A stretch of DNA of 7,648 nt from IMG/VR virus record IMGVR_UViG_3300014721_000007, positions 1 to 7,648 of that record, one strand, 5' to 3'. The position numbers were made by a program, and so were the translations under genes. Shown here one piece after another: positions 1 to 7,648 of this stretch. A model generated the notes under the pieces. It made no database searches. It saw only the letters and a list, made by a program, of their open reading frames with translations, and was not told where the DNA came from. Source of the DNA: a virus. Taxonomy: Duplodnaviria > Heunggongvirae > Uroviricota > Caudoviricetes. Position 1 is the first letter of the stretch; every line of letters begins with the position of its first letter.

Positions 1-11
1 TCACGGTCACC

Positions 12-827
12 TCAATGAACGGTATCGAGCAGCTTTAACAGCTCAGGGAATCGGGATTCGAAGAAATGCGGCTGCGTCTCGCGCGGATTTGCAGGACTGG
101 TGATGTTCTTGCCGAACATGCAGCCTTTCGCGGTCAGCGACCAGAATTTTTTGATGTTGTTAATCGCGGTACGACTGTATCGTTCGCGTTGTTCAACGAT
201 CCCCAGCTTCGCCATCTGGTGATATGCCTGATTAGCCGTCAGGCGGATACCATACTGCTTCAGCAGTGCACTCAGCGACAGCGTAGGGCGGCTTGAACCA
301 TCTGGCGCATCAGCAGGTGCATCAATGGCATAGATCGGCATAAGTTCAGGAAGACCAGCTACCTTTGATAATTTCTGGTATGCACCAAGTTTCGAGGAGT
401 TTGACAGATTTAGAGTCTTTGCTGCTGATTCAAGCAGAATGACCCCGGATTTAATTTTGTCGGATGTGGTTTCTTCTGGTGATGAATTATGAAGCGCATC
501 AAAAGTACGTATCACTTTTAAGCTGAATGCCGGGCTGATCCACATTGCATATGCATAGACCAGCTCTTTACAGACATACGTCCCACCATTGCGCCCCTGA
601 ATGGTGATGACAGGAATACTACGGGAATCTCCCGTAGTTTCTTCTTCCAATAATTCCACAAGAGCCTTCGTTTCAGGACGACGCATAAACTCGTGAACTT
701 CCAGCGAACGGGAGGAGCGATTCTCACCAGCGGCAAGAAGAGCAGCTTTCTGAAGGTCGTTAAGACAGTAGTTAGATTCGAAGTACTGGCGCACAGAAAC
801 GCCATCAATTACAAGCAACTGATTCAT
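12..827 (-). CDS. KilA-N domain protein with KilAC-like C-terminal region (antirepressor-like)
   Basis: N-terminal region ends in GTYVCKELVYAYAMWISPAFSLKVIRTFD, which fits the KilA-N signature (GTWVH..LA...A.WISP.F). C-terminal segment TLSLSALLKQYGIRLTANQAYHQMAKLGIV resembles the KilAC antirepressor domain. The track ORF starts at a GTG at 839; the in-frame ATG at 827 has a GGAG Shine-Dalgarno about 8 nt upstream and is preferred. Stop codon is at 12-14. Confidence 0.75.
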   Translation of the reverse strand: MNQLLVIDGVSVRQYFESNYCLNDLQKAALLAAGENRSSRSLEVHEFMRRPETKALVELLEEETTGDSRSIPVITIQGRNGGTYVCKELVYAYAMWISPAFSLKVIRTFDALHNSSPEETTSDKIKSGVILLESAAKTLNLSNSSKLGAYQKLSKVAGLPELMPIYAIDAPADAPDGSSRPTLSLSALLKQYGIRLTANQAYHQMAKLGIVEQRERYSRTAINNIKKFWSLTAKGCMFGKNITSPANPRETQPHFFESRFPELLKLLDTVH

Positions 828-926
828 TGGTTTCTCCACAAATTTTTATCCACGAGCGGGACTGCACTCCCTTTTCGTTGATGCAGGATGAACTTACTGC
901 GATTTTTAATAGTTATCAAGGATACA

Positions 927-942
927 CTGTTCATAAATACAG
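927..942. promoter_or_regulatory. SOS box (LexA operator) CTGTTCATAAATACAG in the intergenic region upstream of the KilA-N gene
   Basis: Perfect CTGT-N8-ACAG with an AT-rich spacer and flanking A/T (aCTGTTCATAAATACAGt). It is the only perfect CTGT-N8-ACAG found by eye in the window. It sits immediately upstream of a candidate minus-strand promoter (-35 TTGATA at + coordinates 914-919, 17-bp spacer, -10 TAAGTT at 891-896). Confidence 0.6.
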
Positions 943-989
943 TATCTTTAACGAGGTAATACCCAAATTTAGGGTGTTGCTCAATTCCG

Positions 990-1386
990 TTACCGAGTTG
1001 CTAATTTGCAACTCGCTTTTTCGTACTTACTGATAGTGATCTCGACCTTCCCCTCCGGGATAACCGGTCCCCACTCCACCAGCATTCTTTTCACCTGACT
1101 GTCGTCTTCCCACACACCCGCGTGGGTCAGGACGTCAAACAGCGCCTTGTTATAGTTGTCCAAGATCGCGGATCCGGTTATCCGGAGGAAACAACACGAT
1201 CTCCACTGATGCAGGTGCCGACGTTGGTTTTGGCAGACGACGTAACTGCTCAACTATTGCTGCACACGCCGCGCTCTGGAATTTCCGCCCCGCCGCGCTT
1301 ATCAGGCTCTTACCAGCAAACGCCCCTTTGTTGGGGTGTCGCCAGTACGTGTTCACGCTGGGCGGAAAAGGCAGGATCAGCTTCAT
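990..1386 (-). pseudogene. rusA: RusA-family Holliday junction resolvase split by a 1-nt frameshift
   Basis: ORF 1150..1386 encodes the RusA N-terminus (LPFPPSVNTYWRH, PPDNRIRDL) and ORF 990..1253, in a different frame, encodes the C-terminus (LDNYNKALFDVLTHAGVWEDDSQV). Removing one C from the CC at + 1160-1161 restores a continuous RDLDNYNK reading frame of about 128 aa. The start ATG at 1386 overlaps the upstream stop (ATGA). Confidence 0.6.
994..1021 (+). terminator. Intrinsic terminator-like hairpin oriented for + strand transcripts
   Basis: Perfect 8-bp inverted repeat CGAGTTGC (994-1001) / GCAACTCG (1008-1015) with a 6-nt loop TAATTT, followed by CTTTTT (1016-1021). On the - strand the stem is not followed by a U tract, so it is unidirectional. 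It overlaps the last codons of the rusA reading frame. Confidence 0.5.
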
Positions 1387-1709
1387 ACTTTCAGGCCTCT
1401 CTCATGTAACCAATGGGCTGCACGCAGCCTGGCGTTTTCCTCACCGGCAAGCAGTGATCGGATAATCCCGACCGCCTCGCTGTCGTCGTCCTTCACCACG
1501 GTATGAAGCGTGATCCCCCGGGCCACACCACGCTTTATCGTGATGACGCCTTTTTTCTCCAGTGCGCGAAGATGCTCCACCGCTGCATTCACTGAACGGT
1601 ATCCCAGCATGGTTGCCACCTCCTGATTGGTTGGCGGGAAGCCACGTTCTTTCTGATAAGAAATCAGCATATCCAGCACCTGCTGCTGGCATTGAGTTAA
1701 CGTCGTCAT
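1383..1709 (-). CDS. LexA N-terminal DNA-binding domain homolog lacking the S24 peptidase domain
   Basis: 108 aa. QQQVLDMLISYQKERGFPPTNQEVATMLGYRSVNAAVEHLRALEKKGVI..ARGITL parallels E. coli LexA residues about 1-70 (recognition helix NAAEEHL). An acidic stretch and VGIIRSLLAGEE align with the LexA hinge and cleavage-site region (VGRVAAGEP). There is no Ser/Lys catalytic domain. ATGA overlaps at both ends (1706-1709 and 1383-1386). Confidence 0.7.
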   Translation of the reverse strand: MTTLTQCQQQVLDMLISYQKERGFPPTNQEVATMLGYRSVNAAVEHLRALEKKGVITIKRGVARGITLHTVVKDDDSEAVGIIRSLLAGEENARLRAAHWLHERGLKV

Positions 1710-2359
1710 GCCGCCATCTCCCTGACCAGTTTTTCCGCCTGCTGGCGAACCTGCGCCAGAAACGCCTCACCACATGCCTCAAGTTCATCGCGCCCGATGT
1801 AGCTGATTGCCGGTCCCTTCCAGGTCTTGTCGAAAACAGCAATAGCACCAGCGAAGAAAGCGCCTGTCGGCACCTGCTTCTCATCTTTCGGGATAAACCA
1901 GGCAGGCAGTTCAAAACCAATACGCCCGCGAATAAAAGCAATATGATCTGCATCTTCCGGCCACCACACTTCGCTGGTGGCAGCTTTGATCAGGAAAACA
2001 TAGCGCCCGCCTTTATCACGCATGGCACTGGCATGTTTCATGATGTAACGCATGCCGGTGATGTATTGCCCCTCATGCTGACTGGCGCGGCTGTATGGGG
2101 GATTACCAAAGGCAGCACCTTTAAGCTCCGCAAGACGTTCTGACCAGTCATGCGCCAGCGCGTTGTCTTCCGCCGTGTAATACGCGGTACATTTGGCGTT
2201 ATCACCGTCAGTAAACAGATCCAGGACAAACGGGCCAAACAGGGTGTTAATTCCCCAGAAAATGTTATCCGGCGTGCGCCACTGATCGCCCACTTCCTTC
2301 AGTTCATGGGCTGGTTTGTTCCGCAGCTCCACCAGCTCCTGGCAATATTTATTACTCAT
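1706..2359 (-). CDS. Phage-type DNA N6-adenine methyltransferase (Dam family)
   Basis: Catalytic motif FGNPPYS, plus DQWRTPDNIF and DLFTDGDNAKC, typical of phage Dam-like methyltransferases. Preferred start is the ATG at 2359, which forms a TAATG overlap with the upstream stop; the track ORF extends to 2392. Confidence 0.85.
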   Translation of the reverse strand: MSNKYCQELVELRNKPAHELKEVGDQWRTPDNIFWGINTLFGPFVLDLFTDGDNAKCTAYYTAEDNALAHDWSERLAELKGAAFGNPPYSRASQHEGQYITGMRYIMKHASAMRDKGGRYVFLIKAATSEVWWPEDADHIAFIRGRIGFELPAWFIPKDEKQVPTGAFFAGAIAVFDKTWKGPAISYIGRDELEACGEAFLAQVRQQAEKLVREMAA

Positions 2360-2853
2360 TAAGCCCCCACGTAATTCCCTGACAGATACCACTCATCACC
2401 CGATACAGCGCGCTTGCTGCTTTTCCGTAAGCACCGCTCACGACGTGCCAGAAAATTGTTTCGTTCTGGCTGGGAGTGGCTTTCACGGAATGCCGCCATC
2501 CACACGGTTGCAGCACGACGGTATAAGCCCCTGGACTCCAGTTCTTCAGCCTGGCGGGTCAGGCACAAAATCACCCGGGGATCGTTAGTGCCGACATAGA
2601 AATTGCGCACAGGTCTGGTTTCACGAACTGGTTGTGGTTCCGGCTCCTGCGCTCTCTCAGTCAGGCGCGGGAAATGTCTGCGTGTATCCCCTTCACAACG
2701 GTGAGCCACACGCCCACTCTGACGTAACTTGCTTGCTGACTGCAGAACGCGCTGCCGTGAGTAACCTGCAAAAGCATCCGCAATGTCTCCGGAAGTACAC
2801 CCCGGATGGGCTTCAATGAATTTCTGAACTTCATTCAAAAGACTCATGATCAC
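2359..2853 (-). CDS. Putative regulator with a PerC-like C-terminal region
   Basis: 164 aa. C-terminal AEELESRGLYRRAATVWMAAF...RRERCLRK resembles the PerC/Pch-family motif (LE.KG.YRRAA.W ... CLRK) from memory. The N-terminal about 60 aa are unassigned. ATGA overlap with the O-like gene stop at 2850-2853. Confidence 0.5.
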   Translation of the reverse strand: MIMSLLNEVQKFIEAHPGCTSGDIADAFAGYSRQRVLQSASKLRQSGRVAHRCEGDTRRHFPRLTERAQEPEPQPVRETRPVRNFYVGTNDPRVILCLTRQAEELESRGLYRRAATVWMAAFRESHSQPERNNFLARRERCLRKSSKRAVSGDEWYLSGNYVGA

Positions 2854-3680
2854 CCCCTGAATCCTGCCGGGATCTGGCTGTAGTCCACGTTGTCGTAACT
2901 GGCTTTGAAGTACGGGTCCTCGCGTCTGGCTGCAGATACCGCAGGAACTTCCCAGGATTCTTCGAAATGACGATCCGGACCAAAGAACGTGACAGCCTGT
3001 TTCACAAATTGTGTGCCGCTGTTACCCATCGCAGATACCCAGCCCGCGTAGCGTTTCACACCTTCCAGCATGGTTTCGGGGTTTACCCCCTCATTCAAAC
3101 GGGCTTTCCAGGCTTTGAAGGCTGCAGATTTTGAATTGCCACCAGCACGTTTGGGATAGGCCAGCCATGCCTGCTCAAACTCCGGAGAGTATTCCGGTCG
3201 GTTTGAACGAACTCGCACAGACTCATCAGCAGATGCACCAACAGCTATTGGTTCATTGACTGGTTCTTTGACTGGTTCTTTGACTGGTTCAAAAGAGTGA
3301 CTGGTTCTGGGTGAATCTCCTGCACTACCCCCTGGTGCAACTCCTGCACTACCTGGTGAATTTGCTGCACCAGATAGTGAATTATTTGCACTACCCCCTA
3401 GTGAATCTCCTGCACCATCAAGATGAAGGAGATAGATATTACTTGAGTTACCTTTTTCACCTTTCCGGGTGACTTTTTTTACCAGCCCGGACTCACAAAG
3501 GGCCGCAATATGATTCATCACAGAACGTTTGCTAATCTCGCACTGGTCAGCAATATGCTGGTAGCTGGGCCAGCACTCACCCTGATCGCTGGCATTATCA
3601 GCCAGCTTGATCAGAACCAGTTTTCGCAATGGATTACCCACTCGAATTTTCATCGCTTTAACCATCAGCTCCATACTCAT
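2850..3680 (-). CDS. Replication initiator, lambda-O-like architecture (N-terminal HTH domain, repeat-encoded low-complexity linker, C-terminal domain)
   Basis: 276 aa. N-terminal winged-HTH-like region (LVLIKLADNASDQGECWPSYQHIADQCEISKRSVMNHIAALCESGLVKK), a Gly/Ser/Ala/Pro-rich linker, EPVKEPVKEPVNEP, then a C-terminal domain. The linker is encoded by DNA direct repeats, as in lambda where ori lies inside O. ATGA overlap at 3677-3680. Confidence 0.7.
   Translation of the reverse strand: MSMELMVKAMKIRVGNPLRKLVLIKLADNASDQGECWPSYQHIADQCEISKRSVMNHIAALCESGLVKKVTRKGEKGNSSNIYLLHLDGAGDSLGGSANNSLSGAANSPGSAGVAPGGSAGDSPRTSHSFEPVKEPVKEPVNEPIAVGASADESVRVRSNRPEYSPEFEQAWLAYPKRAGGNSKSAAFKAWKARLNEGVNPETMLEGVKRYAGWVSAMGNSGTQFVKQAVTFFGPDRHFEESWEVPAVSAARREDPYFKASYDNVDYSQIPAGFRG
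3256..3307. repeat. Tandem 12-bp direct repeats TTTGACTGGTTC (3 units plus a fourth degenerate copy)
   Basis: GACTGGTTC recurs at about 3258, 3270, 3282 and 3299; the first three are at a 12-bp period. They encode the EPVK repeats of the O-like protein. Confidence 0.85.
3311..3421. repeat. Five imperfect 21-24-bp iteron-like direct repeats (candidate origin iterons) with an adjacent AT-rich stretch at 3421-3480
   Basis: Units begin at 3311, 3335, 3356, 3377 and 3401, each starting GTGAA(T)/GTGCAA and containing TGCAC(T/C). GTGAATCTCCTGCAC is exact at both 3311 and 3401; CTCCTGCACTACC is exact at 3317 and 3341. Confidence 0.6.
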
Positions 3681-3901
3681 GCTGCACCTCCGAGATGCTT
3701 CATGTTTTTTCCGGAGCGAAAGGCTATAAGCGGCATACTGACGCGGTAATTACGGCCCAGCGGTTCACAAACCACCTTCTGACATTCACGGTCAACCAGG
3801 CTAACACGTAGAACATGCCCTGCAGGCGTGGTGTACCACTGACCGGGGCGAGGACAACGGAAAGTCTGATTGGTAAATCGTTTGAAAATATTCCGGATCA
3901 T
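3677..3901 (-). CDS. Hypothetical small protein (74 aa)
   Basis: ORF bracketed by ATGA start/stop overlaps with both neighbours (3898-3901 and 3677-3680), which supports translation. No family recognised. Confidence 0.45.
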   Translation of the reverse strand: MIRNIFKRFTNQTFRCPRPGQWYTTPAGHVLRVSLVDRECQKVVCEPLGRNYRVSMPLIAFRSGKNMKHLGGAA

Positions 3902-5046
3902 TTGCGCCCCCTTACCTCTGAAGAGTTCAGCGACGAATGAATAAGACGGGCAAGAAATGCCGCATCGTTAATTCGGTCATACAGACTTACAGCCAGAGGT
4001 GATTCAGCTTTTTCCAGCATGGGATAAAGCTGCTGCAACCAGACCTGATGAATTGATGAAATGTAGGAATAGAGAACGCTGGCGTTATGTGCAACGTCGC
4101 TCGGTACAGCGGGCTTTGAAAGCTGTTTCTCCATCTGGTTAAAGGCATTGATGTATGCCTCTTTGAACTGGGCAGCACGTTTACCCGTGAAACCCATAGC
4201 AAGAAACGCAAAGCCATCGCGGGTTATTTGATAGCAAGGTAGTTTGCGGCCTGAAGCGTCGGTATAACCACTTAACACAAAATTGTGTTCAGCAAATTCA
4301 GCGGAGCATTCAAGGTTTCGAATTCTATCTAAAACCCGCTCGTGCCGTTTAGTAAAGTAGTTAGCAACTGCAAGAGATGTAGTGACAGCACGACCATTGA
4401 TGATCGTGATTTCAGGGTGAACAAAGGTTGGGATCGTAGCCATAATGGCAGCCTCGGTAGCAAGCTTAAAAAACTCACCACATAAGACGCCAATCATAGA
4501 GGTGGTGAGACGTACAGAGTTGGCGTTACCGGCGGCTACCCTTACCGGCGCATCTTGCGATGCCCCTGTACGCCCCACCATAATTTGGGCGTGACAAAAT
4601 AATGCGTACAAAAAAACCGCATCTACGCGGTTGTACGCGGTAGCCTTCTCCAGGACGCCAATCCCGGCACCCGCTTTATAAGGTGCCTGAACAGTGTAAC
4701 GTCCCGGAATGGCAGAATCAATGTGCTGGTGGTCCTTCACACTCAACAAAATCACGCCTGAATTTCCACAAAGGACTAAAGCACTCATGCGGGTAGTCTT
4801 TGCGAAGATAGATAACGCGCTGTGTTTCTGGCTCCCAACGAATAACATGGACATAAAGCCCTCTTCCGTCACGAAACCAGCGGTTAAGTTCCTGCACAAC
4901 TCGCCCCCCACAGTCAGGTAAAGTTCTCTGTGGTTACTTACAGCCAGGTGATTTGGTAATCTGCATTCATGCCGTAACAACAGGTGTTCAGCGACGCTGA
5001 CCACCAGCTGTTGCGACAAACGGTTATTTGCCGTTAAACTGTTCAT
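3898..5046 (-). CDS. Rha-family phage regulatory protein with an about 200-aa N-terminal extension of unknown function
   Basis: Residues about 205-310 (INGRAVTTSLAVANYFTKRHERVLDRIRNLECS...LPCYQITRDGFAFLAMGFTGKRAAQFKEAYINAFNQME) match the Phage_pRha domain. The start ATG at 5046 forms an ATGA overlap with the upstream stop, and the frame stays open for 382 codons. Confidence 0.7.
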   Translation of the reverse strand: MNSLTANNRLSQQLVVSVAEHLLLRHECRLPNHLAVSNHRELYLTVGGELCRNLTAGFVTEEGFMSMLFVGSQKHSALSIFAKTTRMSALVLCGNSGVILLSVKDHQHIDSAIPGRYTVQAPYKAGAGIGVLEKATAYNRVDAVFLYALFCHAQIMVGRTGASQDAPVRVAAGNANSVRLTTSMIGVLCGEFFKLATEAAIMATIPTFVHPEITIINGRAVTTSLAVANYFTKRHERVLDRIRNLECSAEFAEHNFVLSGYTDASGRKLPCYQITRDGFAFLAMGFTGKRAAQFKEAYINAFNQMEKQLSKPAVPSDVAHNASVLYSYISSIHQVWLQQLYPMLEKAESPLAVSLYDRINDAAFLARLIHSSLNSSEVRGRK

Positions 5047-5639
5047 GCGTTAGTTTCTCCACAGACACAAAACGCCACGACGCCCGGAGCTGCACACTCG
5101 CGGGCGTCACTCTTTTCTGGAGCGCAAAAGATTTTGTAGACCAGTGCTGCATGCTCCTGGAGCTTCGAAATTGACAGATACAACTCATCATTAATTGCTG
5201 TCTGCTCGTGTGGCTCCACTACCCCATCTTCGATTGCCGAACGAATCTGCTTTGAGTAACTCCCGATCTGTTCGATGACTTCCAGCAGGCGCTGGTTTAT
5301 ATCGGCGTTCTCTACTTCCTCAATTTCAGGAAGCGATACAAACACCCCACCAGCAGACTGTGCGACAGCATCCGCAATGTAGTGAGTGCCAGCCGCGCGC
5401 TGTAAAATCATTGCCCATCCCAGCGGGAAAATCTGATCGCCATCTGCACGAAGGCGGTTGAATAAAGCGTTCTCTGTTACATCCAGCCACTCAGCAGCTT
5501 CAGCGTAACCCCCCGGCAACGCCGCGATAGTTTTTCTGACAGCTTTCACGTACCACTCAGGCTGTTTTTCTACTTTCCAGTGATGCTTACCCACGGTTAG
5601 CCTCATCGTTCTGTGGTTTCTGTTAATCGATTTATCCAT
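5043..5639 (-). CDS. Putative CII-like / YdaT-family regulatory protein
   Basis: Sits directly downstream of the Cro-like gene. HTH-like segment GGYAEAAEWLDVTENALFNRLRADGDQ. The ATG at 5639 overlaps the cro stop (ATGGATAA) and is preferred; alternative starts are the GTG at 5708 and the ATGs at 5651 and 5606. Family assignment is from memory only. Confidence 0.45.
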   Translation of the reverse strand: MDKSINRNHRTMRLTVGKHHWKVEKQPEWYVKAVRKTIAALPGGYAEAAEWLDVTENALFNRLRADGDQIFPLGWAMILQRAAGTHYIADAVAQSAGGVFVSLPEIEEVENADINQRLLEVIEQIGSYSKQIRSAIEDGVVEPHEQTAINDELYLSISKLQEHAALVYKIFCAPEKSDARECAAPGVVAFCVCGETNA

Positions 5640-5832
5640 TAGATTTTTCATAAAGCTCAGGTTTAAATGGCAACCGTCCGCAAGTTCTATATGCAGCTTC
5701 TGCTGCACGTCCTTTTGGAATTAACTGGCCCGGACGGTTTCGCCACTGATAAACGGCTTCAGTTGTTATGCCGAAAAAAGCAGCAACTTTCTCAATACTG
5801 CCGAAGTAGCTTTCGATATCGTCAGTTGTCAT
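5632..5832 (-). CDS. Cro-like (YdaS-type) HTH repressor
   Basis: 66 aa, divergent from the CI-like gene. Motif LA..LGVS..AVSQW-like segment (VAAFFGITTEAVYQWRNRPGQLIP). GGAGG Shine-Dalgarno 4-5 nt upstream of the ATG at 5832. Confidence 0.75.
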   Translation of the reverse strand: MTTDDIESYFGSIEKVAAFFGITTEAVYQWRNRPGQLIPKGRAAEAAYRTCGRLPFKPELYEKSNG

Positions 5833-5929
5833 ACGCCCTCCAAACTAAGTTTTATTAGATGCTAATTACAAATCTATCTTTGGTCAATAAAAACTAAGAT
5901 TACTTAGCAATTCAAGAAATGGTGCTCCT
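5833..5929. promoter_or_regulatory. Divergent cI/cro promoter-operator region (OR-like)
   Basis: 97-bp AT-rich intergenic region between divergent repressor genes. Contains the inverted repeat CTAAGATTACTTAG (5894-5907), the related CTAAGTTTTATTAG (5845-5858) and TTAGATGCTAA (5855-5865). Exact -35/-10 elements could not be fixed by eye. Confidence 0.6.
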
Positions 5930-6556
5930 ATGGAAACGGTTGGTCAGCGTATAAAAGCTCTGAGAAGAGTTACCAGAACGTCCCAGAAAGAATTGGGTAA
6001 ATTTTGTGGAGTAAGCGACGTTGCTGTGGGGTACTGGGAGAAAGACATCAATACCCCTGGTGGGGAGGCACTTTCGAAATTAGCGAAGTTCTTCAATACG
6101 TCAATAGATTACATTCTTTATGGTGCTGAGTTTGAAGGCAAACTCGTCACAAACATGCGCAGAGTTCCTGTAATATCGTGGGTTCAGGCTGGGCAGTTTA
6201 CTGAGTGCAGGGCAGCAGAAGTGTTTAGTGAAGTGGACAAGTGGGTAGATACATCATTAAAGATTGGTGATAACTCATTTGCATTAGAGGTTAAAGGTGA
6301 CTCCATGACTAACCCTAATGGCCTCCCAACAATACCAGAAGGCGCAACAGTGATTGTAGATCCAGATGCAGAACCTCGTCATGGAAAAATAGTAATCGCT
6401 CGACTTGATGGAACAAACGAAGCTACAGTAAAAAAATTAGTCATCGATGGCCCTCAAAAGTTTTTAGTGCCATTAAATCCTCGGTATCCCAACATCCCTA
6501 TCAATGGTAATTGCCTTATCATTGGTGTAGTCAAAGGAGTTCAATACGAACTCTAA
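5930..6556 (+). CDS. CI-like phage repressor (HTH_XRE N-terminal domain plus S24 LexA-type autopeptidase domain)
   Basis: 208 aa. N-terminal HTH (QKELGKFCGVSDVAVGYWEKD), Ala-Gly cleavage motif (VQAGQF), S24 catalytic serine in GDSMTNP and lysine in VKKLV. Confidence 0.9.
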   Translation: METVGQRIKALRRVTRTSQKELGKFCGVSDVAVGYWEKDINTPGGEALSKLAKFFNTSIDYILYGAEFEGKLVTNMRRVPVISWVQAGQFTECRAAEVFSEVDKWVDTSLKIGDNSFALEVKGDSMTNPNGLPTIPEGATVIVDPDAEPRHGKIVIARLDGTNEATVKKLVIDGPQKFLVPLNPRYPNIPINGNCLIIGVVKGVQYEL

Positions 6557-6589
6557 GACCTCTCTTCTCTAACTAAGGCACCGAACTAA

Positions 6590-6626
6590 GAAAAGTTTGG
6601 TGTTTTCTCTTGCTATAATAACTAAG
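6590..6626 (+). promoter_or_regulatory. Candidate promoter with extended -10 (TGcTATAAT at 6611-6619) flanked by AACTAAG repeats
   Basis: TGnTATAAT is a perfect extended -10; the -35 is poor. AACTAAG heptamers lie at 6571, 6584 and 6620, with the last one at the predicted transcription start. Oriented toward the 6763 ORF. Confidence 0.35.
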
Positions 6627-6762
6627 TTAAGTTAGATTTTATATCAAAGATAACGAACAGGCAGGACGCCCACGAAGTAGCCGCCTGGGGCATATGAAGT
6701 CCAGGATGATTCGTTGAGTCATGTTGTGCCACTATGCACTCATGTTAAAGCAGGTGTATGAA

Positions 6763-7038
6763 ATGAAAGTCCAGATTTTAAACAATAACTGTGAAGTCGT
6801 TTGGTCATACGACATAGCCGCCCCTGTAGATCAGAGCGGCGATAGCTGGACCAATGGGAAACATCAGATTATGGCTGGAGTTGTGTTCTCTTTACGCCGT
6901 GCTTTGGAACAGGCTGAAGTATTTCCATCAGACCCTGAATGGAAATGGCCTTTTTCTATTTGTCCAAATTCGGAGAGTACATTTCAGAAAATTGGTCAGA
7001 AAGTCGCACTCGAAGAGCATCAGCCAACTGTTTCCTGA
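6763..7038 (+). CDS. Hypothetical protein (91 aa), co-oriented with and downstream of cI
   Basis: ATG at 6763 preceded by AGGTG at a 6-nt spacing. No family recognised. Its 3' 83 bp overlap the convergent ORF 6956..7201, so at most one may be real over the overlap. Confidence 0.35.
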   Translation: MKVQILNNNCEVVWSYDIAAPVDQSGDSWTNGKHQIMAGVVFSLRRALEQAEVFPSDPEWKWPFSICPNSESTFQKIGQKVALEEHQPTVS

Positions 7039-7201
7039 TTTTTTCAGGTAACTCGTCGGCATCGCAGAAACAACAACGCTCGATCATGTTGAAAGCCGAT
7101 TCGTAGAACTGTTTCTGCTGAGTGTCGCTGAGACAGGAAAAGAGCGACGTTACGATGATTTTATTAATTGCATTATCAAGTTCTTTTTCATCAAAAGTCA
7201 T
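6956..7201 (-). CDS. Hypothetical protein (81 aa), convergent with cI
   Basis: ATG at 7201 preceded by AAGGA with an 8-nt spacer. Helix-like, acidic sequence with a CCFC motif. No family recognised. Confidence 0.4.
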   Translation of the reverse strand: MTFDEKELDNAINKIIVTSLFSCLSDTQQKQFYESAFNMIERCCFCDADELPEKIRKQLADALRVRLSDQFSEMYSPNLDK

Positions 7202-7454
7202 TTGATTTTCCTTTTATGTATACGGGCTTAAAAGGATACCACCGAGCCTGAAGTGGTGAAAAGACAGGCACATAACAGCTAAGTATTTTCAACCAAAGAG
7301 AATCCTTAGCGTTGTGGTGAATGCGGCTCAGCGCACGCGGGTTAAGGTTGAGGCTGACAGTCGACCTTCTGTGGATACCCACCCGTCTGGTGTGCAACCT
7401 TCGCCAGGCACCGGGAGGCACCCGGCACCACAACTTTATGCTGTGTGTAGTCCT

Positions 7455-7501
7455 GGCGGTACCAGTTTGTACCCTTGCTTCCGGCTGGTACCGTCCTTTT
7501 T
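7455..7501 (+). terminator. Terminator-like hairpin on the + strand
   Basis: Stem 7455-7465 pairs with 7485-7495 (core GGTACCAG / CTGGTACC, 11 bp including one G-U), 19-nt loop, followed by CTTTTT (7496-7501). No U tract on the - strand. Confidence 0.4.
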
Positions 7502-7502
7502 A

Positions 7503-7589
7503 CAAAACAGAGAAGAGCATCACCGGACGACGGGCTCATAACCCAATCCATCCGGGCGGCTGCCACCGCAGGTGTTCTTCTCTGTTTTG
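7503..7589. repeat. 14-bp perfect inverted repeat CAAAACAGAGAAGA / TCTTCTCTGTTTTG enclosing a 59-nt G+C-rich segment
   Basis: Arms at 7503-7516 and 7576-7589 are exact reverse complements. The stem is extensible by about 4 more pairs with G-U pairing in RNA. No credible ORF covers it. Confidence 0.85.
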
Positions 7590-7638
7590 TGGAGAAACTA
7601 ATCGGCCTTGCAGGGTCGATATGATGAGGAGCAGCAAA

Positions 7639-7648
7639 ATGGCTAACG
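7639..7648 (+). CDS. 5' end of a gene running off the window (only ATG GCT AAC visible)
   Basis: GAGGAG Shine-Dalgarno at 7626-7631 with a 7-nt spacer before the ATG at 7639. Product unknown; too little sequence to assign. Confidence 0.25.

Follow-up and report, generated by a model that had tools for sequence, protein, structure and literature searches.

The stretch of DNA examined here, positions 1 to 7,648 of the IMG/VR virus record IMGVR_UViG_3300014721_000007 (the window, 7648 bp), comes from a lambdoid prophage, of which it holds the immunity and early-right region, as judged by open reading frame (ORF), Pfam and PHROG annotation. A gene in its middle encodes a homologue of replication initiators and contains two kinds of short DNA repeat, five dyad-symmetric iterons and an array of 10-mers, which meet in the segment from about 3250 to 3480. 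We consider this segment very likely to be the replication origin of the prophage, situated inside its own initiator gene. Such an arrangement, modelled on ori-lambda and with the iterons forming part of the initiator gene, had been proposed in a sequence-only reading of the window, and it fits all the comparative tests that were run. An origin is an expected feature in an initiator family that has not been studied; the invariant, frame-independent block formed by the 10-mers is the unusual part. The principal features of the locus are the following, with the strand given for coding features.

2850-3680, minus strand: initiator gene, 276 amino acids (ORF list; Pfam HTH_36, 1.8e-11; PHROG phrog_270, 'replication initiation protein', 1.1e-88)
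3417-3680, minus strand: winged-helix DNA-binding domain, residues 1-88 (AlphaFold2 predicted local distance difference test, pLDDT, 79-93; confident over about residues 1-90)
3486-3530, minus strand: predicted recognition helix, residues 51-65, KRSVMNHIAALCESG (AlphaFold2 helix 51-64; residues 51-56 sort the family by dyad type)
2853-3197, minus strand: C-terminal helical domain, residues 162-276 (AlphaFold2 helical domain 162-241 with helices in 166-241, pLDDT about 52-82)
3257-3307: four 10-mers TGACTGGTTC (coding strand GAACCAGTCA) at 3257, 3269, 3281 and 3298, spaced 12, 12 and 17 nt apart
3281-3310: family-invariant DNA block, TGACTGGTTCAAAAGAGTGACTGGTTCTGG, with two 10-mers 17 nt apart, encoding PRTSHSFEPV
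3311-3325: iteron 1, GTGAATCTCCTGCAC, starting 3 nt past the last 10-mer
3335-3349: iteron 2, GTGCAACTCCTGCAC, GTGCA-ACTCC-TGCAC, with perfect 5+5 arms and matches on both strands
3356-3370: iteron 3, GTGAATTTGCTGCAC
3377-3391: iteron 4, GTGAATTATTTGCAC
3401-3415: iteron 5, GTGAATCTCCTGCAC, the same sequence as iteron 1
3417-3480: AT-richer and least stable stretch of the gene, flanking the iterons on the wing-coding side

In the AlphaFold2 model the initiator consists of an N-terminal winged helix (helices 3-11, 17-28, 40-47 and 51-64; beta-hairpin 67-85), a linker predicted to be disordered (residues 91-161, pLDDT 25-37) and a helical C-terminal domain, which is presumed to recruit the host replication machinery. 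The protein had been described as an O-like initiator. Its assignment as an initiator is borne out by phrog_270 and by HTH_36 (PF13730; residues 17-67 score 44.1 bits, above the gathering cut-off of 25), and its PHROG matches include replication, 'DnaD-like helicase loader' and 'primosomal protein' families. The likeness to O did not extend to Pfam: at E <= 0.01 the matches are HTH_36, DnaD_N (PF21984; 24.3 bits against a cut-off of 27, below the gathering score), B-block_TFIIIC and HTH_20, with neither Phage_rep_O (PF04492) nor any other initiator family among them, and by these profiles the protein is outside the lambda O family. Foldseek returned generic winged-helix matches for the N-terminal domain, including the plasmid initiators 4pql and 4pt7 and, weakly, DnaD-N 2v79 (E ~0.02), and nothing informative for the C-terminal domain. 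Searching the PDB by sequence, whether with the protein alone or with a profile, yielded no significant match, and NCBIfam has no family for it. Homologues of the C-terminal domain were mostly fragments with uninformative names, one of them labelled 'conserved phage C-terminal domain'.

The five iterons share the 15-bp dyad GTGMA-N5-TGCAC (GTGMANNNNNTGCAC) and span 3311-3415, with start-to-start distances of 24, 21, 21 and 24 bp. The direct repeats of 21-24 bp that had been proposed here are real: the dyad pattern has no other match in the window, where shuffles predict 0.04, and none of 200 shuffles reaches five. Tandem Repeats Finder (TRF) reports a period of 24 with 4.6 copies for the array, and a separate repeat search agrees. 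Every unit is also an inverted repeat, a property absent from the sequence-only reading, and this dyad symmetry, combined with a spacing of two helical turns, is consistent with binding by a dimeric winged-helix protein. In the complete 44.5-kb genome of phage mEp460, dyads and 10-mers are confined to the homologous initiator gene. In the window, all iterons and 10-mers lie inside ORF 2850-3680(-), where the repeats encode residues 89-144 (GAGDSLGG...SPRTSHSFEPVKEPVKEPVNEP) within the part predicted to be a disordered linker, as had been suggested. Five iterons are the rule among close relatives, with variants of 1, 2, 7, 8 or 9 units, and the copy number differs by whole units.

Comparison of about 200 relatives links the sequence of these dyads to that of the protein. 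Three diverged genes that were read share one plan, in which a conserved N-terminal domain (MSMxLMxKAMxxKVGNPLRKLVLIKLADNAxDxGECWPSYQHIAD) is followed by a variable recognition helix and wing, 3-7 phage-specific dyads at 21-24 bp, the block, and an unrelated C-terminal domain. Among 167 distinct sequences, recognition-helix residues 51-56 and dyad type form an exclusive, block-diagonal table of six classes, which is uncorrected for phylogeny and whose classes recur across hosts and C-terminal domains.

KRSVMN, RRSVIN and similar helices: GTGMA-N5-TKCAC, 4-5 sites each and no other dyad type
RSTVK(L/V): GGGCA-N5-TGCCC
RSTVR(K/R): TAGGC-N5-GCCTA
K(S/T)AVRx: TGCCR-N5-YGGCA
(K/R)RTAMR and KRSVMR: GTGAC-N5-GTCAC
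R(K/T)TAIx: GTGTA-N5-TACAC

A single-residue difference, N56R, separates KRSVMN from KRSVMR, and the two helices are paired with different half-sites. The comparison across related prophages that the sequence-only reading had called for thus finds repeats whose number varies by whole units and whose sequence tracks the recognition helix. Pseudomonas relatives with the helix of the window keep the same 15-mers, one of them as its exact reverse complement, although the linker peptides differ (GGAPPAPGVVQQIHQG... against GAGDSLGGSANNSL...), which indicates that conservation rests on the DNA motif, with the peptide as its consequence. The peptides rich in Gly/Ser and the EPVK peptides would be a tolerated by-product, in a linker whose sequence would be dictated by its DNA elements. 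The family also extends to phage phi24B (HM208303, our locus L205), whose gene 'O' (locus positions 1116-1892) is an HTH_36 family member with three GGGCAGCTCCTGCCC dyads. That gene is not lambda-like; it carries the block with one mismatch and is followed by a large 'P' gene with a gp4-type helicase region.

The 10-mers form a separate DNA block and are not further iterons. Three to four tandem 12-mers had been counted here with the repeats of the origin; three are indeed in tandem (3255-3290; TRF 3249-3291, period 12, 3.6 copies, 93% match), and the fourth is present as a 10-mer at 3298-3307, 17 nt further along. Tolerating one mismatch brings up no further copy of the 10-mer in the window (0.47 expected; 0/200 shuffles), and close relatives hold two, three or four copies. 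Across the family the invariant block reads GAC TGGTTC nnAAGA GTGACTGGTTCTGG. An exact scan of IMG/VR for its 18-mer AAGAGTGACTGGTTCTGG found at least 120 loci, of which about 115 fall within initiator genes that encode this N-terminal domain; at the remaining five or so the sequence is cut off or ambiguous. In a sample drawn independently of the block, the best 80 of 248 matches to the N-terminal peptide and thus leaning to closer relatives, the 18-mer is exact at 29 loci, within two mismatches at 60 and within five at 79. This sample includes Pseudomonas, Enterobacter, Aeromonas, Shewanella, Xenorhabdus, Marinomonas, Aliivibrio and Avibacterium, and overall at least twelve genera of Gammaproteobacteria have prophages with the block. 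In a distant DNA search, about 40 nt around the 10-mers were 95-97% identical in Vibrio, Stenotrophomonas, Klebsiella and other phages, whereas the rest had diverged. In the block, 27 of roughly 30 positions are kept at >=90%, against 60-70% identity in the flanks (Pseudomonas, Shewanella, Aeromonas, Avibacterium and E. coli phages), and iteron 1 begins three bases past the last 10-mer in all classes inspected.

Conservation of the block is a property of the DNA. In 55 non-redundant genes from the sample of 80, mean third-codon conservation over AGA ACC AGT CAC TCT TTT GAA CCA GTC is 0.95, compared with 0.56 for the 29 best-conserved N-terminal codons and 0.69 for the best nine-codon run in codons 1-80. 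Most substitutions in the block are non-synonymous (T/I, F/L/S, P/S), and the consensus is GAAYCAGTCA. The gene in the window reads the one 10-mer in two frames, as EPV (GAA CCA GTC) and as RTSH (aGA ACC AGT CAc). Among the relatives, three loci (L191, L192, L194) read the first copy as EPV, three others (L187, L200, L202) read two copies as RTSH or RTSQ and the third as EPV, and a further three (L174, L182, L186) have the block in other frames. Because the frame differs among phages, selection appears to act on the DNA. The overlap of DNA-level and protein-level selection that had been suggested for this region is supported, with a varying peptide and a constant motif. More distant relatives retain a degenerate 10-mer with unrelated peptides: mEp554 has TAATCAGTCA and TAACCAGTAA, encoding NQSYITSK; Psychrobacter phage Y8A has GAACCTATCA, with two full copies and a partial third at 12-nt spacing; and Pseudomonas phage MD8 has four GAACC at a 12-nt period.

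In the samples examined the block was never seen apart from this N-terminal domain, while the C-terminal domains that come after this N-terminal domain, its iterons and the block belong to at least seven unrelated families; the block is thereby tied to the DNA-binding half of the protein. It would accordingly seem to be linked neither to one helicase partner nor to a host factor on which all phages draw. We tentatively suggest that the GAAYCAGTCA array may be a family-wide origin element not described before, a sequence-specific double- or single-stranded site for DNA opening or for entry of the host helicase; if this is true, it could explain the loader-free replication of phages that encode an O homologue only. 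By eye, the block contains no good match to the DnaA-box, IHF or Fis consensus, for which no formal scan was made. No mention of the motif was found in open-access text, where the motif strings returned unrelated primers only.

The block might instead be a recombination joint, at which specificity cassettes of recognition helix and iterons are swapped against C-terminal domains, with no direct role in initiation. Lambdoid phages are known to be mosaic at conserved boundary sequences, the set of unrelated C-terminal families behind the same block is what such a joint would give, and one relative (P0065) is a chimera in which a phi24B-type N-terminus with GGGCA iterons is joined to a window-type C-terminus exactly at the block. 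We nevertheless regard this account, taken as the whole explanation, as doubtful. Selection for the capacity to recombine is second-order and unlikely to hold so many positions nearly fixed while the flanks drift, and 30 bp is short for homologous exchange. Distant relatives, moreover, keep a degenerate GAACC-N-TCA at 12 nt with quite different peptides, which points to a function of the motif. The two roles, origin element and recombination joint, are compatible, and the block may serve as both.

The iterons are flanked on their other side by the AT-richer stretch. The sequence-only reading had placed it at 3421-3480, an interval that is 65% AT in a gene of 50% AT; no duplex in the gene is less stable than the 40-mer 3417-3456 (z = 2.35 window-wide). 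The difference is modest, and five intergenic stretches of the window are less stable. The protein segment encoded here is the Lys-rich wing of the winged helix, and the stretch is only a candidate unwinding element. Across the family, both flanks exceed the AT content of their gene by a small margin, +0.07 to +0.09 for the wing-coding side and +0.10 to +0.13 for the block. In RK2 oriV, with its initiator TrfA, and in oriC, 13-mers within the unwinding element are the opening site, where the initiator makes sequence-specific contacts with single strands. In its place and its period, the 10-mer array recalls such 13-mer arrays of plasmid and chromosomal unwinding elements. As in RK2 oriV, initiator-binding repeats would be directly flanked by an array of short, 12-13-nt repeats, whereas the 12-nt array of the window is 56.5% AT and lies inside a gene; the resemblance offers a lead.

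From these features we infer a possible course of initiation. Derepression would lead to rightward early transcription and synthesis of the 276-residue initiator, whose N-terminal winged-helix dimers would bind the five dyads. The spacing of about two helical turns would place the dimers on roughly one face of the DNA, in a complex resembling the lambda O-some. This complex would destabilise one flank, either the 10-mer array next to iteron 1 or, on the opposite side, the 65%-AT stretch, and melting there would be followed by recruitment of the host helicase machinery through the C-terminal domain. The host machinery is invoked because the phage encodes neither helicase nor loader.

Iterons inside an initiator gene are known from lambda and from the six-iteron Shiga toxin (Stx) phages 933W and P27 (PMC7466680), and from P22 and L, whose sequence-divergent origin-binding proteins have repeats of their own (PMC8022706). 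The proposed origin resembles ori-lambda in lying midway along the initiator gene, where the interdomain linker is encoded, with several dyad-symmetric repeats about two helical turns apart and an AT-richer flank. By analogy with O, the N-terminal domain would provide specificity and the C-terminal domain recruitment, and the module occupies the same place in the pR operon, after cro and cII. It differs in that its initiator belongs to Pfam HTH_36 and has no P-type loader, its iteron core is 15 bp compared with ~19 bp in lambda, its AT-rich flank is on the N-terminal side of the iterons and only 65% AT, and an invariant 10-mer array adjoins the iterons. Gene 18 of P22 and gene 18 of L encode initiators with intragenic iterons, as in the window, but are partnered with a DnaB-type helicase gene, gene 12, unlike the window; a replicative helicase likewise comes next after some relatives of the window protein, such as that of Stenotrophomonas phage BUCT709. 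P22 and L were not among 60 records sampled evenly from the 289 that the N-terminal domain matched in the phage collection.

Several points weigh against assigning an origin to this segment. No experiment on any member of this initiator family, and no paper mapping or discussing an origin for it, was found in open-access text. The step after initiator binding is left unexplained by the lack of a helicase or loader gene, and the cumulative GC skew of the complete mEp460 genome follows the direction of transcription, with no sign of an origin. A strongly AT-rich unwinding element is missing, the candidates being the 65%-AT stretch and the 56.5%-AT array. Natural variants with one or two iterons exist, and one variant is without the block (P0042, P0030, P0038); the array could therefore be dispensable, or these may be defective prophages. 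Finally, initiator sites inside a gene could serve autoregulation instead of, or besides, initiation.

This last point can be taken further, to dyads that are bound by the initiator solely as autoregulatory operators, or as roadblocks for the initiator gene or downstream early genes, with the origin elsewhere in the phage. Covariation speaks for recognition and not for its purpose, plasmid Rep proteins often autoregulate through inverted repeats, and the sites lack a strongly AT-rich unwinding element beside them. Yet five in-phase copies deep in a coding region, away from any promoter, reproduce the layout of the lambda, P22 and L origins; no promoter-like site is predicted in 2800-4000; and dyad and 10-mer are found nowhere else in the mEp460 genome, which leaves no other candidate initiator site there. 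An operator function alone is thus improbable, and a dual role of the dyads as operator and origin is possible and compatible with an origin at this site. It is highly improbable that the region is a slippage-prone, low-complexity linker, selected if at all for a flexible Gly/Ser/Pro peptide and with DNA repeats of no cis function: the encoded segment is predicted to be disordered, copy number changes in frame as slippage would give, and one- and two-unit variants exist, but slippage does not produce units that are each an inverted repeat, and it accounts neither for half-sites that follow the recognition helix in six exclusive classes, nor for identical 15-mers in opposite orientation with different peptides, nor for a 10-mer kept across reading frames with a third-codon conservation of 0.95 against 0.56.

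The proposed origin belongs to a replication module without dedicated helicase functions. Among the annotated genes, none encoding a helicase, primase or helicase loader lies 3' of the initiator gene (window 12-2853), and a P-type loader gene directly downstream was found neither in the window nor in mEp460. The complete phage mEp460 has the same gene content without a helicase or loader after the initiator; it is an isolated, viable phage in which the initiator homologue is the sole gene annotated for replication. The initiator gene is 97-99% identical to genes of mEp460 (~97.5%), cdtI, 1720a-02, many Stx2c phages and Stx2a_WGPS2 (AP012537; 97.7%), the last being the reference phage of the 'Eru6' replication type (PMC8951638). 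It is matched, at least in part, in 2718 of 5426 complete E. coli genomes, 897 of them with >=80% gene coverage. The window shows the arrangement of the Eru6/mEp460-type 'O-only' module, in which a Rha-family gene and then an HTH_36 gene lie downstream of cI/cro without helicase, primase or loader. Such modules, with a single O-like gene as in the window, are represented by phage LLS, the Eru6-type Stx phages and 34 of the 314 lambdoid phages of Zheng et al. 2025, who describe all 34 as unstudied and write that replication of this type 'is not yet understood' (PMC12315714). The passages on origins in that paper contain no mapped origin for the O-only type, and a term search of the Eru paper (PMC8951638) gave no mention of 'iteron' or replication 'origin' for any Eru type.

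This single-gene module is present in about a tenth of lambdoid phages, including Stx2c phages, Eru6-type Shiga-toxin phages and the Cdt-I phage, and the dependence of Shiga-toxin output on phage DNA replication gives it practical weight. Our analysis provides base-level coordinates for a candidate cis-acting target, a predicted recognition code that includes the single-residue switch N56R (GTGMA to GTGAC), and a separate, strongly conserved 10-mer element; together, these bring the O-only mechanism within direct reach of experiment. The locus also illustrates clearly how overlapping DNA signals can shape a protein linker.

Other signals in and around the repeats were considered. A hairpin or single-strand initiation signal was rejected, as single-stranded folding of 3240-3430 is no better than that of shuffles (z = -0.2), and Rfam has no RNA family in the repeat region. 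A 10-nt inverted repeat with one arm in the block (3300-3309) and the other in the N-terminal coding region (3612-3621) is attributed to chance, since on inspection it is not kept in relatives. A terminator-like hairpin with a T-run (TCACCTTTCCGGGTGA CTTTTTTTAC) lies at 3457-3482(+), antisense to the initiator gene and inside the AT-rich stretch; one such match was seen against 1.2 expected by chance. An alternative-frame ORF of 48 amino acids (3245-3391(-), ...HPEPVTLLNQSKNQSKNQSMNQ) runs through iterons and 10-mers, in the frame where two frameshifted relatives (L144 and L175) terminate just past the block. Natural variants among P0038, P0042 and P0030 include a deletion of the last iteron and the block as well as one- or two-unit forms. 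Among all these natural variants, P0065, L144 and L175 included, some are probably decaying prophages.

Members of the family also occur in extrachromosomal records. A 44.6-kb circular record (L206, NZ_CP148393.1) and other 39-45-kb PLSDB records carry genes for an integrase and for lysis alongside the initiator and lack a plasmid replicon type; these 'plasmids' look like excised circular phage genomes. About ten extrachromosomal elements of Arsenophonus nasoniae encode an N-terminal domain with 59% identity.

The remaining genes of the window are arranged around the initiator gene, whose position after cro, cII and Rha is the usual place of O in lambdoid phages.

5930-6556, plus strand: S24/HTH repressor
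5632-5832, minus strand: Cro-like gene
5043-5708, minus strand: CII-like gene
3898-5046, minus strand: Ash/Rha ORF, 382 amino acids
3677-3901, minus strand: small ORF
12-2853, minus strand, 3' of the initiator gene: PerC/YfdN-like, Dam methylase, LexA-like and KilA-N ORFs

A RusA gene is annotated at the matching position in a close relative (L001). The LexA-like protein (108 amino acids, 1383-1709(-)) consists of the LexA DNA-binding domain alone (PF01726, 2.9e-19), without the S24 cleavage domain, and could be a phage-borne, non-cleavable mimic of LexA. Upstream of the initiator gene, Rfam identifies a C4 antisense RNA (68.4 bits) and the Hfq-binding RNA isrK (60 bits) at 4498-4585(-) and 4610-4686(-), both above the gathering score. 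These matches fall inside the 5' third of the Ash/Rha ORF 3898-5046 and overlap its Pfam 'Ash' domain (residues 117-211). The pair resembles an RNA switch of the P1 immI or Gifsy isrK kind before a Rha/antirepressor gene, and the long Ash/Rha ORF, or the Ash domain call within it, may in part be a translated RNA gene.

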